The notes under the pieces are model-generated. The model was not told where the DNA came from and ran no database searches. It worked only from the letters and a program-made list of their open reading frames with translations. Both the position numbers and the translations under genes were made by a program. 64,000 nt of DNA, from the IMG/VR virus record IMGVR_UViG_3300032323_003710. One strand, 5' to 3'. Numbering within the stretch: position 1 is the first letter of the stretch; each line of letters starts with the position of its first letter. The DNA comes from an uncultured virus (IMG/VR IMGVR_UViG_3300032323_003710) (taxonomy: Duplodnaviria; Heunggongvirae; Uroviricota; Caudoviricetes). This document shows, piece after piece, positions 1 through 53,277 of this stretch.

Positions 1-153
1 AAACCCTGTAGGTGTTCCATTGTAACCATCTGATACAATCATACCATTTTTAACTATTATAGCACCTACTTTCTTTCTTGTACAATGTGAAAGAGTTGCC
101 CATTCAGTTGCCATATTGAGATATACTCTATCATATCTATCTTGTTTATTCAT
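1..153 (-). CDS. dCMP deaminase (ComEB-like), N-terminal part; runs off window start
   Basis: Hand translation MNKQDRYDRVYLNMATEWATLSHCTRKKVGAIIVKNGMIVSDGYNGTPTGF; S-x-C..VGA..GYNG-P motif; not in ORF track. Confidence 0.9.
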   Translation of the reverse strand, partial: MNKQDRYDRVYLNMATEWATLSHCTRKKVGAIIVKNGMIVSDGYNGTPTGF

Positions 154-325
154 CTTTTAATATTTTATTTATTTTTTCCTTCCTCATTTCTGATTTTGTA
201 TTATTAAAATAATCATACCATTGTTTTGACACGGTTATATAATTAGCTGAACCTCTAACACTTCCTCTTGCAATTGTATTTGCAGCTTCATTTAGTTTAG
301 ATATTAATTCAGATTGTGTCATCAT
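146..325 (-). CDS. 59-aa protein: major-capsid (gp23)-like fragment with C-terminal RD-type tag
   Basis: Hand translation MMTQSELISKLNEAANTIARGSVRGSANYITVSKQWYDYFNNTKSEMRKEKINKILKDE; TAATG overlap with nusG stop, overlaps dCMP deaminase start; below ORF-track cutoff. Confidence 0.75.
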   Translation of the reverse strand: MMTQSELISKLNEAANTIARGSVRGSANYITVSKQWYDYFNNTKSEMRKEKINKILKDE

Positions 326-879
326 TATGAATATTTTTTATCAATTTGATGCATTTCTAAAGTAAGTGGAGTTTTTCTACCAAAGATAGAAACTGCTAAA
401 ACTACTTTTTGATCTTCAATTTTATCAATAGTTGCTTTCATTGTTGCAAATGGTCCTTCATTGATTGTAACTTCTTCACCAACTGTAAAAATATTATCAA
501 TTTTCTTATTCATTGATTCAGTTTGTTTACCAATCATTTTGTTTACTTCTGCTTCTGTTAATGATTGAATATCACCATTTCTTTCTGCCAAGAATCCTGT
601 TGCACCTTTAACTCCTTTAAGAAAGTATTTTAACTCACCAAGTGAATTAGTTTCCATAAAGATATACCCTGGAAACATAATAGTTTCTTTCTCTACTTTC
701 TTATTGTTTTTTAAGTAAATTGATTTTTCAAGTGGTACAAGAACTTGTCCTATCTTACCAGTAAGATTTCCTGTTTCTCCTTCTTTATTTATTTTTTCTG
801 CAACTGATTTTTCACGGTTTCCTTGTGTTCTCACAACATACCATTTCATGTCTGTTTTGTTTATAACTTCTGTACTCAT
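325..879 (-). CDS. nusG: Transcription termination/antitermination factor NusG
   Basis: WYVVRT..G.E NGN domain, FPGYIF, KOW motif GEEVTINEGPF, SIFGRKTPL. Confidence 0.93.
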   Translation of the reverse strand: MSTEVINKTDMKWYVVRTQGNREKSVAEKINKEGETGNLTGKIGQVLVPLEKSIYLKNNKKVEKETIMFPGYIFMETNSLGELKYFLKGVKGATGFLAERNGDIQSLTEAEVNKMIGKQTESMNKKIDNIFTVGEEVTINEGPFATMKATIDKIEDQKVVLAVSIFGRKTPLTLEMHQIDKKYS

Positions 880-882
880 AAT

Positions 883-1278
883 TTATATTTGTTTTTCTAA
901 TTTTTTTATATAATCAAGTTCATCTTTAATGAACTCTGGATGTTTATCTATTAGATAATTAATATCATCAGGTTTAACCTTTAGTTTAATAGTTAACATC
1001 TTAAATTCTTTTTCTGTAATTTTGGGTTTATCTACTTTTTCACTTTTAGACCAGAACCATTTTGGAAATGGTTGTGTAAGCATAAAGTTGTACCACAAAT
1101 CCATAACAAGTACTTTATCAATTCCTTTTATGTTCATAAGGGCTGCTTGTTCAATATATTTCTTAGAAAAATAACGATTGAATATAAAGGAAAACTTCTC
1201 TTTATCATCACTCGTTATCTTAACCCAGTCTCTTTTATTCTTTAACATTGCATTAAAGACATCAATTAATTCTGCCAT
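883..1278 (-). CDS. Probable clamp-loader small subunit (T4 gp62-like)
   Basis: Size and pattern FIFNRYFS..A..MN...DK...D.W.N...KWF resemble gp62 family; in a replication operon. Confidence 0.5.
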   Translation of the reverse strand: MAELIDVFNAMLKNKRDWVKITSDDKEKFSFIFNRYFSKKYIEQAALMNIKGIDKVLVMDLWYNFMLTQPFPKWFWSKSEKVDKPKITEKEFKMLTIKLKVKPDDINYLIDKHPEFIKDELDYIKKLEKQI

Positions 1279-1677
1279 TTATAGTATAATTTTATCTATT
1301 TGTTTATCTCTAAATTCTATTGGATCATAATACTTCATATATTCTAATCCTAATACTTCTATTAATTCATCAGTAGAAAGTTCATAAGAAAATGAAGAAT
1401 TAACAGGCACATATCTACCATTAGCTAATTCATACTCTTCAACACCAGTGAAGACATTAAAAACATTTCTAACAATACCTACTCTTTTTGAGTTATCTAC
1501 ATTATCTCTTATTTTAGATAATTTATCAATAAACTCATCATTATTTACTTCTAAAGATGACTGCCATTCACAATAATTACAGATATGTTCAAATAGAACT
1601 TTATTTTTTGTAGGATATCCTAATTGTTCAATTACAGGTTCCCATTTACGAATTATATTCTTTTCAATGTTAGTCAT
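1279..1677 (-). CDS. Hypothetical protein; N-terminus like gp23 major capsid N-terminal segment, C-terminal RD tag
   Basis: KWEPVIEQLGYP...EWQ; ends FRDKQIDKIIL. Confidence 0.65.
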   Translation of the reverse strand: MTNIEKNIIRKWEPVIEQLGYPTKNKVLFEHICNYCEWQSSLEVNNDEFIDKLSKIRDNVDNSKRVGIVRNVFNVFTGVEEYELANGRYVPVNSSFSYELSTDELIEVLGLEYMKYYDPIEFRDKQIDKIIL

Positions 1678-2192
1678 TATTCATTTATATTTTTCAATAA
1701 CTCATCTATATTGTTATCTCTCATTAATCCTGATTCCTTCATTACATCATTCCAAATATCATTGAAGTTTTCACTATTAATATCTTTTAATTTATTAGTA
1801 GCAAGAGGTAATATCTCATCATACATTTTAGGATCTAAATACTGAGCTCTAATGTTATAACCTTTATTTATTGAGAAACCTGTTTCTTTAAGAATTTCTA
1901 CTGAAAAGTAATCATCATCACTAACTTTAGTTAAACCTGAACTACTATTTCTTGATTTCTTAATACCTGATAAATTATCAGTACTTATTGAAAATCCACT
2001 ATCATTTATATTTATATTAATGTTATTTCTATAATTTAATAGATTTAACAACATTGTTTTTAACTTATCACTAACCTCTTCATCATAACCAGCCCAATCA
2101 GCAGTGTACATTTGAGATTTGATAGGTCTATCCATCTCTCTCATTTCCTCAACTACTAACTTCACTATCTTTTTTAATTTCTTATCTTTCAT
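1677..2192 (-). CDS. Hypothetical protein with C-terminal RD tag
   Basis: Translationally coupled ORF; ends MRDNNIDELLKNINE. Confidence 0.75.
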   Translation of the reverse strand: MKDKKLKKIVKLVVEEMREMDRPIKSQMYTADWAGYDEEVSDKLKTMLLNLLNYRNNINININDSGFSISTDNLSGIKKSRNSSSGLTKVSDDDYFSVEILKETGFSINKGYNIRAQYLDPKMYDEILPLATNKLKDINSENFNDIWNDVMKESGLMRDNNIDELLKNINE

Positions 2193-3160
2193 ATTCCTTC
2201 AAATACTTTTGTCATTCTACTTACAACTTCTTGAGGTAGATTGCTAATTCTTAAATCAATCAATCTAACATTCATTTCAATATTACCAACAATTGGTGAT
2301 ATTTGACTTTTACTTAGTTTCTTTTTCTCACAGATTAAATCTGCAATGTTTTCATGTAAATCTGGATCCAATAAATTAACTTCACCAAATTCTAATAAGT
2401 ACTCATCATATATTGTTTTTGCACCAGCTGCACCGATACCTCTTTTTTTACCATTTTTTGTAACACTCCAAACAGAATTAATGTTATCACTTGAATCACC
2501 TGATATAATCTTAATGATTAAAGATTCCATTGGGTCAATCTCATGAACTTCATATTTATTTATGAAGTTATCTAATAAACCAATAAACTCAACATTATCA
2601 TTTAGATTAAAAATATCATCATTTGGTAATTTTGATAGTTTGTTTAAGAAAACTTGATAGTTCTTTGGTAAGAACAATTTTTCTTTGTTATACATCTCAT
2701 TAGTCATCAAATTAATTGTAAGAGGGTCTAATGAATAGTTAACCATTTGTTTAATATCATAGTCATTTGAAACTATAATTACTGATCTTCCTTCACTATT
2801 TGCATTCTCAGTTAAATATGAAATCCAGTCATCACCTTCAATATGTGGTGCTTCTAATACTTTCATTGTTGATTTTACTTCTTCTTTGAACTCACCATAA
2901 GCAGTGTAAACAAAGTTCCAATCAATGTCAGTATCTTTCTTTCTTGTTCCTTTGTATTCTTCAATTAGTTTCTTTCTCCAAGATTTCTCTTTTGAATCAG
3001 ATACTAAATAAACATTTGCAAAAGGATACCATTTTCTATATCCTGTTATGTTATTCTCAAGTGCTTTATGTAGTCCACCAAATAACAGGTTGTGTTTGTG
3101 TAGTGTAAACACTAACTTAGATAGTATATAGTTACCATCAATTATTAAATCTACTCCCAT
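2189..3160 (-). CDS. rnh: RNase H / 5'-3' exonuclease (T4 RNase H, FEN-like)
   Basis: IIDGN, SWRK...YKGTRK, EGDDWI, SNDYD, GDSSDNI, GIG motifs. Confidence 0.9.
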   Translation of the reverse strand: MGVDLIIDGNYILSKLVFTLHKHNLLFGGLHKALENNITGYRKWYPFANVYLVSDSKEKSWRKKLIEEYKGTRKKDTDIDWNFVYTAYGEFKEEVKSTMKVLEAPHIEGDDWISYLTENANSEGRSVIIVSNDYDIKQMVNYSLDPLTINLMTNEMYNKEKLFLPKNYQVFLNKLSKLPNDDIFNLNDNVEFIGLLDNFINKYEVHEIDPMESLIIKIISGDSSDNINSVWSVTKNGKKRGIGAAGAKTIYDEYLLEFGEVNLLDPDLHENIADLICEKKKLSKSQISPIVGNIEMNVRLIDLRISNLPQEVVSRMTKVFEGI

Positions 3161-3180
3161 GTAGTTTTATCTTATTTTTT

Positions 3181-3209
3181 ATTTATACTCAATAAGATAA
3201 GATTTGTTG
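3181..3209 (-). promoter_or_regulatory. Class B promoter candidate (AAC-N18-TATAAAT)
   Basis: Minus strand CAAC-AAATCTTATCTTATTGAG-TATAAAT upstream of RNase H. Confidence 0.5.
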
Positions 3210-3617
3210 TTATTTTAGTATGTCATTAATCTTTTTATCTCTATCTAATATAGTTATTCTTTCTTCAATGAATTTATCCATTTCATAACCAAATGAAAAT
3301 TGTTGTTTCTTTAATTCTAACCAATAAGGTTTACCTAATACATTTAATGTTGCAATTGCCATACCTAATGTAGGATCTGGATATCCCTCAGATTCATATT
3401 CTTCTCCAAGAATTACATAAGTTGTCTTCTGTGATGTAATGGTTGCTCCTGTTCCCCAAGAACCATGTCCATTTCCATAAATTGCATTTACATTATTTCC
3501 TAATGTTATTGTACTATTTGCCCAGTTTCCTGTTGTTATATTAGCAGTTCCTGTTGTAATACTTGTACCTGTTAGTGAACCAGATGACATATTTAATGTC
3601 TTTGTTTTCTTTGCCAT
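3210..3617 (-). CDS. Hypothetical protein, T/G/S-rich N-terminus, C-terminal RD tag
   Basis: Ends LDRDKKINDILK. Confidence 0.75.
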   Translation of the reverse strand: MAKKTKTLNMSSGSLTGTSITTGTANITTGNWANSTITLGNNVNAIYGNGHGSWGTGATITSQKTTYVILGEEYESEGYPDPTLGMAIATLNVLGKPYWLELKKQQFSFGYEMDKFIEERITILDRDKKINDILK

Positions 3618-3632
3618 TTTTTAATCTTCTTT

Positions 3633-4157
3633 TTATATGATTCTGTTAATTTGTATATCTCTATACATTACAGAAAATTCTTCTCTTATATCTAACTCAC
3701 AATCATATATATGAGTGTTGCTATAGTAATCATACCAATTTCTATTAACAACTTTCTTTAATATACTATCATAGTTTTCTTTAAGTAAGTGAAAACACTT
3801 TTCTTTTTCCATCCAATGTGTGAAGTTTCTTATTAAATCAAATCCAATTTTATCAAAACCATAAAAGAATTGTGGTCTTGAATAGGCAAATAAGTAATGT
3901 GATATTACTAAGTTATCATCTATTTCTACTTTTGGATTTGAATACTCTGGTGTTGTGAAGTAAAATTCAACACCTAATTTCATTACTGCTTTAGTTAACT
4001 TTAATACCTGATTAGGTAATCTAACATCTAAGAATAGATAATAGATGTCATCTTCAATAAAACACATAGGTATATTTTGTAACTTTTTATACATTAAAAA
4101 GTTACCTTTTACTGACCAATTCCCAGTATTATCAAGTATTAAATTATCTAAGCCCAT
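3633..4157 (-). CDS. Hypothetical protein with C-terminal RD tag
   Basis: Ends YRDIQINRII. Confidence 0.75.
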   Translation of the reverse strand: MGLDNLILDNTGNWSVKGNFLMYKKLQNIPMCFIEDDIYYLFLDVRLPNQVLKLTKAVMKLGVEFYFTTPEYSNPKVEIDDNLVISHYLFAYSRPQFFYGFDKIGFDLIRNFTHWMEKEKCFHLLKENYDSILKKVVNRNWYDYYSNTHIYDCELDIREEFSVMYRDIQINRII

Positions 4158-4463: not shown

Positions 4464-4491
4464 ATTATATAAATTATTGGAGTAATTGTTT
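4464..4491 (-). promoter_or_regulatory. Class B promoter candidate (AAAC-N18-TATAAT)
   Basis: Minus strand AAAC-AATTACTCCAATAATTTA-TATAAT. Confidence 0.55.
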
Positions 4492-6335
4492 TATTTTAAT
4501 AATTCTACTTTTCTCAAATCTGAGTTCTTACCAAACCAAGTTTCTAATGCACCACTTGATACATCATTTTTATTTATTAGTGTAAGTCTAGGACTATTAA
4601 TAATATCTTGGTACTCATCATCAACTAATGCTGCCAAACCTTTCTTATATTTAATCTCAAAGTTTTTTAAGTCATTTTGGTCAGCCCATTCATTGTATTC
4701 AGTTTGTGAATAGAAAAGTATTTTCTTTTTACCTTTTGCTCTTGGTACAGCAACCACAATAGGTGTCTCAACTTTGTATATCATTTTTCTTTCAAATATC
4801 TCTGGCCAATACTTAAAGAAGAAGTTAATTAATAAAGCAGAAATGGCATTACCATCAACATCAGCATCAGTATAAAAGAATATCTTACCATATCTTAAAT
4901 GTTTCAATTCTATTGGTTGTCCTAATTTTAATCCAATTGCCGCCATAAGATTAACAGCTTCTGTATTTTGAACTAATTTCTGATTAGTAATCTCAGATAC
5001 ATTTATAAACTTTCCTCTCAATGAGAAAGCTCCCATTGTATCTGCAGTTCTATATTTTCTAAATGCACCTGCTGCAGAATCTCCCTCAAATAATCCTAAT
5101 GAACATTTCCATCTGTCTTTACCTTTAGCATCAATAAGTTTCTCTACTTTAATCTTAGATAACTTCTTATTTAATTCTCTTTGTAGTTTATTGTCATCTG
5201 CATTTTTCTTTTGCTCTATCCAATCCAATATAGAGTTAACTATCTCTGATTTAAGAATAGATTGTACTAATTTAGTACTTACTTCAAATGTAGTTCCAAA
5301 CTCTTTAACCTCTGTAATTAATTTCTCTTTTGTTTGTGATGAAAATGATGGATTGATTATAGTTGAATCTAAAAACAAAGTCATATGATTTTTTAACTCT
5401 GTTGGTTTAATATCAACCTTATGTTTTTTTAAGAAGAACTCTCTTAGTTGCGCAACTATTTGTGACATAACATAATCAACATGTGTTCCACCATCATATG
5501 TTTCTGTTGAGTTAGCAAAACTAATTTGTTGGAATCCATTTTCTGAAATAGCAATTGCAATAGACCAACTTTTATTTTTATTACATTCAAAGAAGTAATC
5601 ATCTGTATAAAGTTTAATGTAATCTTCAAATGAATTTAGATTTATTAGTTTATCATTAAAGTATATTTTAAGACTTGGGTTACAAGCAGCTAAGTCATAT
5701 ATTCTTTTCTCAATCATTTTGTAATGATCTTCATCAATATTTTCTAAACCAAACTTTTCAAAGTCAGTAGCAAAAGTTATTTCAGTATGTTTCTTTGTCC
5801 CTTTAACTACTTTAGCTTCTGTTCTATCTCTCATATTATTTGTGAATGTTTGGTCAAATTGATTTTTACCATCACAAGTTGATATAGTGAATTTTTTAGA
5901 ATAGATATTTACTAATACTGAACCTACACCATTTGTTCCTGCCCAAGTTCTACTATCATCATCATCAAAGTTAGAACCTGCTTTAAGATTAGAGAATATC
6001 ATTTCAGGAATCCATTCATTATGTTCTTGGTGTTTGATTACTGGTATACCACCATTATCCCATACAGAGATAACATCATTTTTTATAGTAACTTTGATTG
6101 TGTTTAATTTTGATCCTTCTCTTTTACTCTCATCAACTGAGTTAGTAATAATTTCATCAAATATTTTAAGAAATCCAGGGTTGTAAGTAAGTTCCCTTTG
6201 TGTCATTTTCTCTTCTCCTAATACCCATTTAGTTGCTGTATGAGGTTTAATTGAACCAATATACATACCAGGTCTTAGTATAACATGCTCAATATCAGTT
6301 AATTTCTTATACTTATCTTCTATTTTTTTAGACAT
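4491..6335 (-). CDS. Type II DNA topoisomerase large subunit (T4 gp39+60-like, GHKL ATPase + TOPRIM)
   Basis: HVILRPGMYIGS, EIITNSVD, DNGGIP, GTNGVGS, EGDSA, LRGK, TDADVDG, YKKGLA. Confidence 0.95.
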   Translation of the reverse strand: MSKKIEDKYKKLTDIEHVILRPGMYIGSIKPHTATKWVLGEEKMTQRELTYNPGFLKIFDEIITNSVDESKREGSKLNTIKVTIKNDVISVWDNGGIPVIKHQEHNEWIPEMIFSNLKAGSNFDDDDSRTWAGTNGVGSVLVNIYSKKFTISTCDGKNQFDQTFTNNMRDRTEAKVVKGTKKHTEITFATDFEKFGLENIDEDHYKMIEKRIYDLAACNPSLKIYFNDKLINLNSFEDYIKLYTDDYFFECNKNKSWSIAIAISENGFQQISFANSTETYDGGTHVDYVMSQIVAQLREFFLKKHKVDIKPTELKNHMTLFLDSTIINPSFSSQTKEKLITEVKEFGTTFEVSTKLVQSILKSEIVNSILDWIEQKKNADDNKLQRELNKKLSKIKVEKLIDAKGKDRWKCSLGLFEGDSAAGAFRKYRTADTMGAFSLRGKFINVSEITNQKLVQNTEAVNLMAAIGLKLGQPIELKHLRYGKIFFYTDADVDGNAISALLINFFFKYWPEIFERKMIYKVETPIVVAVPRAKGKKKILFYSQTEYNEWADQNDLKNFEIKYKKGLAALVDDEYQDIINSPRLTLINKNDVSSGALETWFGKNSDLRKVELLK

Positions 6336-12272: not shown

Positions 12273-12383
12273 TTATTCTTTATCTTTTTTATTTTCTAAT
12301 GTTTTTAATATTCTTTCAATCTTTTTCTTTCTAAGATAAAATTTAGAAACATTAAAAATTCCTGGATAGTGTGGCAAAGGCAT
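12273..12383 (-). CDS. 36-aa peptide consisting largely of an RD-type tag
   Basis: Hand translation MPLPHYPGIFNVSKFYLRKKKIERILKTLENKKDKE; AATATATA at 12406-12413; abuts next gene. Confidence 0.5.
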   Translation of the reverse strand: MPLPHYPGIFNVSKFYLRKKKIERILKTLENKKDKE

Positions 12384-53109: not shown

Positions 53110-53277
53110 TTATTTTTTTCTTTTGTTCAATACTGATAAAACAACACCAGTTAATGTAACTACTGCACCAATTGCTTCTTGGATTAAACCAGCTTCTAAT
53201 AAACCATTAGTTAATAAAACACCTCCAACAAATGTAAGAGTGTGTCTAAGTAAACCTAAAATTTCTTCTTTATTCAT
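53110..53277 (-). CDS. Putative 2-TM holin (Pam3-gp28-like), 55 aa
   Basis: Hand translation MNKEEILGLLRHTLTFVGGVLLTNGLLEAGLIQEAIGAVVTLTGVVLSVLNKRKK; AATATATA 53329-53336. Confidence 0.7.
   Translation of the reverse strand: MNKEEILGLLRHTLTFVGGVLLTNGLLEAGLIQEAIGAVVTLTGVVLSVLNKRKK

Follow-up and report, generated by a model that had tools for sequence, protein, structure and literature searches.

A conserved mini-gene of huge phages encodes a capsid A-domain interface segment with a clade-wide C-terminal tag

MicroProteins are small proteins that descend from the interacting part of a larger one and act by competition, a concept that comes from eukaryotes. Short peptides also serve as targeting tags, as exemplified by the T4 capsid targeting sequence, which is N-terminal and cleaved, and by the cargo-loading peptides of encapsulins. 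In the major capsid protein (MCP) gp23 of phage T4, residues 351–388 belong to the axial (A) domain and constitute a helix-strand-helix element at the capsomer core. The available part of one study (PMC9546572) locates the gp24-bypass substitutions N381S and A387T on a short A-domain helix at the interface with the neighbouring subunit in the capsomer. A different portion of gp23 comprises Gol, a 29-residue region which the accessible text of PMC3014915 places in the first quarter of the protein. Here we describe a window of 64,000 nucleotides from an uncultured tailed virus (IMG/VR record IMGVR_UViG_3300032323_003710). On the basis of sequence comparison, it carries a conserved mini-gene, termed ORF-A, which combines a capsid A-domain interface segment with a tag occurring throughout the clade, and which is one of a set of mini-genes copying other pieces of head proteins.

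Gene neighbourhood, conservation and capsid homology of ORF-A

The original prediction claimed a 59-residue ORF translationally coupled between nusG and a dCMP deaminase gene in a replication-type operon. The ORF listing contains this ORF, including the residues quoted for it and the sequence MRKEKINKIL (Table 1). With the TAA of the NusG-like gene its ATG shares 1 nt, and the ATG of the deaminase (position 153) lies inside its 3′ end with an overlap of 8 nt, which confirms the coupling of the co-directional genes. Upstream of ORF-A, the exonuclease and topoisomerase genes are densely packed on the same strand, so that a replication-type operon is a fair label for the array. Promoter and terminator scans added nothing to this operon picture; sigma-70 sites are fewer than in shuffled sequences (33 versus 48 ± 8.2). 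RNA-library contigs extend over ORF-A in three of four runs, two of them bridging into NusG; as RNA libraries may contain DNA, this coverage is a weak hint of transcription, and the uncovered parts of positions 1–4000 are uninformative. The contigs of run X17 cover, within the ORF-A region, only positions 58–164. A contig of run X18 joins position 1679 to 2199 with 7 other letters in between, which points to a relative without the 171-aa ORF at 1677–2192. Both this ORF and the adjacent 132-aa ORF (1279–1677) are missing from the phage genome LR745206.1.

Table 1. Positions of the mini-gene, its neighbours and tagged ORFs (window coordinates unless a related locus is named)
Position	Strand	Feature	Evidence or remark
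1..153	-	dCMP deaminase, 5′ part, continuing past the window edge	PF00383 E 8e-6; phrog_174 E 6.5e-19
146..325	-	ORF-A, 59-aa mini-gene	ATG start; capsid-protein fragment and C-terminal tag (MRKEKINKIL region)
158..184	-	ORF-A residues 48-56, tag R-K-x-K-I-x-K/R-I-L/F	family conservation and motif recurrence
200..319	-	ORF-A residues 3-42, diverged gp23-type A-domain piece	helix / loop / strand / short helix
325..879	-	NusG-like gene, 184 aa	PF02357 E 2.8e-16, KOW 7.5e-5; phrog_6386 transcription antiterminator E 6.7e-29
2189..3160	-	5′-3′ exonuclease	PF02739 E 3.6e-14
4491..6335	-	topoisomerase II large subunit	phrog_543 E 1.1e-187
12273..12383	-	second clearly tagged mini-gene, 36 aa	tag HMM 16.3 and 13.1 bits; abuts next gene
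3210-3617	-	ORF with weaker tag (this and the six below: 77-145 aa)	4-9 bits
7862-8230	+	ORF with weaker tag	4-9 bits
15069-15470	+	ORF with weaker tag	4-9 bits
47698-47940	+	ORF with weaker tag	4-9 bits
47927-48160	+	ORF with weaker tag	4-9 bits
49760-50038	+	ORF with weaker tag	4-9 bits
50035-50472	+	ORF with weaker tag	4-9 bits
L008 1879-2085; L009 1262-1435; L010 3224-3397; L011 838-1008; L012 2712-2900		ORF-B, tagged mini-gene	portal-derived

In the phage collection, the first 4 kb of the window match only LR745206.1 (634,780 bp) and LR756502.1 (642,428 bp), with ca. 71% nucleotide identity, and by this measure the two phages (634–642 kb) are the nearest complete relatives. The largest genomes reported by Al-Shayeb et al. 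2020, of 634, 636, 642 and 735 kb, are attributed there, in the part of the article available, to a ‘Mahaphage’ clade with predicted Bacteroidetes hosts (PMC7162821). Near-identical DNA is present in lake and freshwater metagenomes from at least four studies apart from the possible source. ORF-A and its position behind NusG are kept in all seven DNA copies (the window and the loci L007–L012), for which a Nei-Gojobori analysis of the 21 pairs gave dN/dS values of 0.18–0.73, without exception below 1; the corresponding values for NusG in the same genomes are 0.05–0.27. ORF-A is a real gene under purifying selection. A copy of ORF-A is also found in LR756502.1, separated from NusG by a 267-aa ORF (L013 1563–2366, minus strand) with HNH-like cysteine/histidine motifs, which, judged by eye from its sequence, looks like a free-standing homing-endonuclease insertion. 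In the whole genome of LR745206.1 no member of the ORF-A family was detected, and ORF-A is therefore dispensable.

A word-based search yielded 28 relatives of ORF-A with 54–74 aa. When a profile of 21 sequences was compared with 1.84 billion cluster representatives, 206 passed E ≤ 1e-3, of which 21 reached E ≤ 1e-10; among the best 150 of these 206 matches, 137 are 50–79 aa long and align from end to end. Mean column identity in an alignment of 105 members amounts to 25%, yet a single architecture is constantly maintained. A related-locus search with the family gave at least one viral and at least three metagenome loci among the matches listed. The relatives in public sets are hypothetical proteins, and the ESM Atlas contains the exact ORF-A sequence with no usable neighbour.

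The front part of ORF-A had been predicted to be an internal fragment of a T4-type MCP, and at the family level this assignment was upheld. The Pfam family Gp23 (PF07068) is matched by 92 of 105 diverse members at E ≤ 0.1 (best E 5.5e-9), the next commonest Pfam family being found in two of the 105, and 21 of 29 close sequences (ORF-A included) match Gp23 individually. For ORF-A alone, the match to Gp23 has an E-value of 0.0054 and covers residues 6–37 on profile positions 223–254 of 376, its score lying under the Pfam gathering cut-off (16.6 versus 24.4 bits), and that to phrog_138 (major head protein) has an E-value of 0.0044. As a control, none of 75 other window ORFs of 45–75 aa matched Gp23 at E ≤ 0.01. 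The control scan also met a 55-aa holin of the Pam3 gp28 family (53110–53277, minus strand; PF23987, E 1.9e-14). A search of the PDB with the family profile returned T4 gp23 chains as the top four matches (E 0.0031–0.0061; next match E 1.9), and the alignment to gp23 is ungapped over residues 351–388 of 521. Judged from these profiles, the front ca. 40 residues of ORF-A are homologous to T4-type MCPs beyond chance. The copied segment is not the Gol region, as it corresponds to 351–388 of 521 and Gol belongs to the first quarter in the accessible part of PMC3014915. The aligned gp23 stretch includes both N381 and A387, as positioned in the available text of PMC9546572, which provides a concrete anchor for the previously mentioned alternative of a modulated capsid assembly.

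The comparison with Gp23 profiles, proposed as a check of the capsid assignment, came out in its favour; for the comparison with an MCP, the protein of the clade was used. Here hhalign aligned the family with the MCP of the clade at a probability of 92.1% and an E-value of 6.3e-7 (ORF-A 3–42 on MCP 410–450). A simple HMMER profile built from the clade MCP did not report ORF-A at E ≤ 1, and a full-length MCP is absent from the best 150 of the 206 family-profile matches. The ORF-A copy of LR756502.1 is identical to the MCP of the same phage in 13 of 31 residues and the window ORF-A to this MCP in 11 of 27, the copy being ca. 30–40% identical to the clade MCP segment; the clade MCP is 74–99% conserved among its best 120 relatives. 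Submitted alone, the 39-residue segment of the clade MCP finds no Gp23 match, whereas the mini-protein does, which puts the latter nearer to the Gp23 consensus than the present MCP. The piece was likely copied from the clade's own MCP, and in terms of these alignments it represents a single core segment that was duplicated long ago and has since diverged.

An AF2 model based on the 105-sequence alignment (pLDDT 84, pTM 0.35) consists of a helix (4–24), a non-helical part (25–33), which corresponds to a strand in the MCP, and a second helix (34–58) running through the tag. With a shallow alignment a single long helix was obtained (pLDDT 75, pTM 0.31), which is uninformative. Isolated ORF-A is modelled with no independent fold, and a Foldseek search of the 105-sequence model against the PDB gave nothing at E ≤ 10. 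A complete HK97-type fold is not contained in ORF-A, which comprises 59 residues, profile positions 223–254 only and two helices plus a loop. In size and homology it is of the microProtein type, i.e. the contact region of a larger oligomer with the other domains missing.

The C-terminal tag and further tagged fragments

The tag logo of 87 members, anchored on a conserved arginine, reads K/R-x-x-x-R-K-x-K-I-K-K/R-I-L/F, and in 63 of these 87 members only 0–3 residues follow. Arg48, Lys51 and Ile52 of ORF-A vary little or not at all across the family, and in ORF-A the tag HMM scores 19.8 and 18.1 bits, 2 residues before the stop. Since the tag codons vary freely among synonyms (AGA/AGG, AAA/AAG, ATT/ATA/ATC, TTT/TTC/TTA), it is the amino acid sequence of the tag that is conserved. 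That a recurrent C-terminal tag is attached to the capsid fragment, as originally suggested, was borne out, for the motif ends other small ORFs too. In the window it clearly terminates two ORFs, 146–325 and 12273–12383, and a weaker ‘R-D-K-x-I’ form terminates several real ORFs (Table 1); seven of eight tag matches of at least 4 bits in window frames of at least 75 aa are located at most 6 residues from the stop. Roughly one window gene in ten seems to carry the motif. The N-terminal part of 12273–12383 has no Pfam or PHROG match, and a look-alike of this mini-gene is a 35-aa ORF of LR745206.1 (261394–261501).

The PIP box has the spacing x-x-x-h-x-x-a-a at the C-terminus, which the spacing K-x-x-I-x-x-I-L/F of the tag resembles. 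By this spacing the tag may be a clamp-binding motif; Pfam families of the gp45 or beta-clamp type were not found in LR745206.1. Two explanations of the tag were rejected. A membrane-binding amphipathic helix is not indicated by its helical moment (0.37 versus 0.43 ± 0.21 for shuffles), and a by-product of the A-rich start of the next gene is incompatible with the synonymous codon variety and with tagged ORFs that are also the last in gene rows. As a copy of the end of the MCP spine helix, the tag gave local scores of 25–31, which are not significant.

The whole genome of LR745206.1 contains 22 ORFs of 26–105 aa with the tag at their end, and its 781 frames of at least 110 aa showed no strong tag match. 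Three of the 22 match Gp23 at different positions, 132–163 (E 0.0057), 164–194 (E 5e-4) and 308–356 (E 2.2e-4), the last one sharing 35% identity with the LR745206.1 MCP over 46 residues (E 3e-5). An 83-aa tagged ORF copies repeats of a 727-aa protein (51–55% identity, E ca. 1e-17) whose gene is directly upstream of the MCP gene. A 79-aa tagged ORF (83154–83393; L018 3154–3393) is weakly similar to two proteins of the same phage, the large subunit of ribonucleotide reductase (RNR; E 0.006, 35.6% over 45 aa) and, in the motif-A region, the family B DNA polymerase (PolB; E 0.014, 11 of 14 residues). Tagged fragments may, on this similarity, not be limited to head proteins.

In five related loci (L008–L012) a further tagged mini-gene, ORF-B, is located between ORF-A and the deaminase gene. 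ORF-B originates from the C-terminal part of a T4-type portal and is absent from the window. ORF-B matches Portal_T4 at positions 380–429 of 433 (E 0.0084) and the portal profile phrog_213 (E 0.0043), and its dN/dS values range from 0.19 to 0.91 in 10 pairs. The clade portal protein has 583 aa (Portal_T4 E 3.3e-57), the stretch matching ORF-B being near residue 485. In LR745206.1 the slot is filled by a single ORF of the ORF-B type (Portal_T4 E 0.048). At this slot the window is ca. 170–200 nt shorter than L008–L012, with the junction inside the tag-coding repeat, and the window ORF-A ends with the last residues of ORF-B. These features fit a deletion between two tag repeats; an insertion in the relatives is a possible alternative. 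In all four RNA-library runs the contigs leave the window at position 156 or 175, as the two-gene form would predict.

Fused forms exist as well. The public proteins P0171 (192 aa) and P0135 (142 aa), two of the longer family-profile matches, match Gp23 at E-values of ca. 8e-11, each with two stretches, and contain capsid pieces in an order different from that in the MCP with tag-like stretches between them. In P0171, residues 12–34 correspond to clade MCP 479–508, residues 39–78 to Gp23 profile positions 224–263 and residues 146–181 to MCP 333–367. Such a shuffled order points to pieces that function as linear segments. A homologue search with P0171 retrieved only the protein itself, and fused forms are rare. 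The 132-aa ORF at 1279–1677 (minus strand), located in the same gene row as ORF-A, ends with the tag variant R-D-K-x-I-x-K-I-I-L. Its N-terminus and that of the clade MCP show weak similarity (E 0.18 with HMMER and 0.004 in a pairwise comparison; a probability of only 12.8% with hhalign), and a second short stretch is similar to MCP 480–500 (E 1.2); it may represent another composite capsid-piece gene. LR756502.1 encodes, in addition, an untagged 250-aa protein (241136–241888; L047 1426–2178, minus strand) that matches only Gp23 positions 209–323 (E 0.0023) and, by virtue of this match, is a partial capsid paralogue. A second full-length gene of the Gp23 family, e.g. for a gp24-type vertex protein, was found neither in LR745206.1 nor in LR756502.1.

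Function of the mini-protein

We tentatively consider ORF-A, with a probability of roughly 0.4, as a microProtein-like competitive mimic of a capsid segment whose tag is the docking handle on a common hub. Mechanistically, ORF-A would offer the copied segment, including the unpaired strand, to the usual contacts of the unassembled capsid protein and thereby compete with the real capsid protein, and the shared tag would dock ORF-A on the hub. The phage's own capsid subunits are a conceivable yet doubtful partner, in which case capsomer or head assembly would be controlled, and a host sensor of capsid protein is a candidate on the same footing; a chaperone or protease that acts on capsid protein in its unfolded state appears rather improbable. 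Competitive mimicry is supported by the location of the aligned segment at the intracapsomer interface of T4, by the non-native order of capsid pieces in the fused forms and by the other tagged ORFs, which copy pieces of the capsid, portal and scaffold-repeat proteins. Several findings speak against it. ORF-A is only ca. 30–40% identical to the MCP segment; as the MCP itself is 74–99% conserved, one might expect an interface mimic of this protein to follow the MCP sequence more closely. The family is absent from LR745206.1, the isolated AF2 model has no independent fold, and ORF-A is surrounded by genes for replication and nucleotide metabolism and not by head genes. A purely head-assembly role is also at variance with the weakly RNR/PolB-like tagged ORF of LR745206.1. 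In a broader version, which we regard as speculative and on balance unlikely, the tagged ORFs would form a library of linear mimics: the most conserved, hard-to-mutate motifs of essential proteins (various parts of the capsid protein, the portal, the protease/scaffold and possibly RNR and DNA polymerase) would be re-encoded as mini-proteins and routed by the tag to one hub, in order to blind or divert host factors that recognise these motifs, thus forming an array of protein decoys against innate sensing.

The original prediction favoured an immune decoy, according to which an early-made mini-protein imitates a conserved capsid motif and blunts or misroutes a host sensor via the tag. Capsid proteins are known triggers of bacterial defence, as described for Gol/Lit/EF-Tu and CapRel in the accessible portions of PMC3014915 and PMC9712102, respectively. 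The tagged mini-genes draw on the best-conserved parts of several essential proteins (capsid, portal, scaffold and, weakly, RNR and PolB), the shuffled pieces favour linear epitopes over a fold, and ORF-A is located in a replication-type array. On the other hand, the copied segment differs from the Gol region as placed in the former source, binding of a trigger usually activates and does not silence a sensor, so that an extra step mediated by the tag has to be assumed, and a precedent was not found in the literature searched; we look upon the decoy as an unlikely candidate. Even less convincing is a structural or cargo role, in which the tag is a head-targeting signal and the mini-protein becomes a minor component, a cement or an internal protein of the head. 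It would readily explain the occurrence of one short tag on many unrelated small proteins, the tag is basic and long acidic stretches are present in the clade portal tail and in the 727-aa protein encoded beside the MCP gene, and the unpaired strand of the predicted model could join a sheet. This role is improbable given the distance of ORF-A from the head genes, the missing family in LR745206.1 and the tag's lack of amphipathic-helix character (0.37 versus 0.43 ± 0.21 for shuffles).

Alternatively, ORF-A could be the functionless relic of a decayed second capsid gene, held open between two coupled genes. The 250-aa partial capsid paralogue of LR756502.1 and the varying content of the slot among relatives (only ORF-A, only ORF-B or both) are compatible with such a history. 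Nevertheless, all 21 pairs have dN/dS values under 1, length and architecture are constant across 206 clusters at 25% mean column identity, and the identical tag is found on pieces of different proteins, all of which renders a relic very improbable. Practically negligible is the assumption that the capsid likeness is due to chance, or that the locus encodes an RNA-level guide-plus-scaffold element comparable to the VIPR vrRNAs. The former could be argued from the single-sequence Gp23 score below the Pfam cut-off and is contradicted by the profile-level matches to Gp23 and the MCP and by the control (0 of 75). The variable part followed by a constant tail superficially recalls guide RNAs as outlined in the accessible part of the VIPR preprint (10.64898/2026.10.15.759431), but the coupled ORFs are intact in seven of seven DNA copies and the amino acids are conserved while synonymous codons vary.

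Capsid-fragment mini-genes were not found described in the full-text literature searched, a scope that lies apart from most subscription-journal papers and bioRxiv supplements, and the accessible part of a survey of jumbo-phage genomics (PMC7824862) makes no mention of capsid fragments, decoys or small proteins. If the fragments are mimics, huge phages cut the most conserved segments of their head proteins into separately encoded, commonly tagged peptides, a strategy absent from the literature searched. One outcome would be a new level of control over how heads are assembled in phages with the largest known capsids, the other a new class of counter-defence that points to host factors reading capsid and portal motifs. 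The family is large (206 clusters), and the DNA recurs in lake and freshwater metagenomes. Peptides of this length can be synthesised directly, which makes the question easy to test.

Comparison with known systems

The closest described protein is T4 gp23, together with gp24 (PF07068; PDB 6uzc and 5vf3). Residues 3–42 of ORF-A are homologous to gp23 351–388, with the order helix, loop/strand and helix predicted from the model. However, ORF-A holds only ca. 10% of the profile; since the P domain, spine helix, N-arm and insertion domain are missing, it cannot form a shell subunit. Conversely, the capsid protein is devoid of the tag which ORF-A carries. The Gol/EF-Tu/Lit system offers a candidate analogy, in that a short linear stretch taken from a capsid protein may by itself act on another protein, but Gol is part of full-length gp23, in its first quarter according to the available text of PMC3014915, whereas ORF-A is a separate gene corresponding to 351–388.

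The T4 capsid targeting sequence and the encapsulin peptides differ from the ORF-A tag in their unrelated sequences, and the T4 tag also in being N-terminal and cleaved whereas that of ORF-A is C-terminal; the likeness, by analogy, would be the attachment of one short peptide to many unrelated small proteins. For microProteins there is no counterpart of the shared C-terminal tag, and competition is in the case of ORF-A only proposed. What ORF-A has in common with them is its small size and its derivation from part of a larger, oligomerising protein whose remainder is missing.
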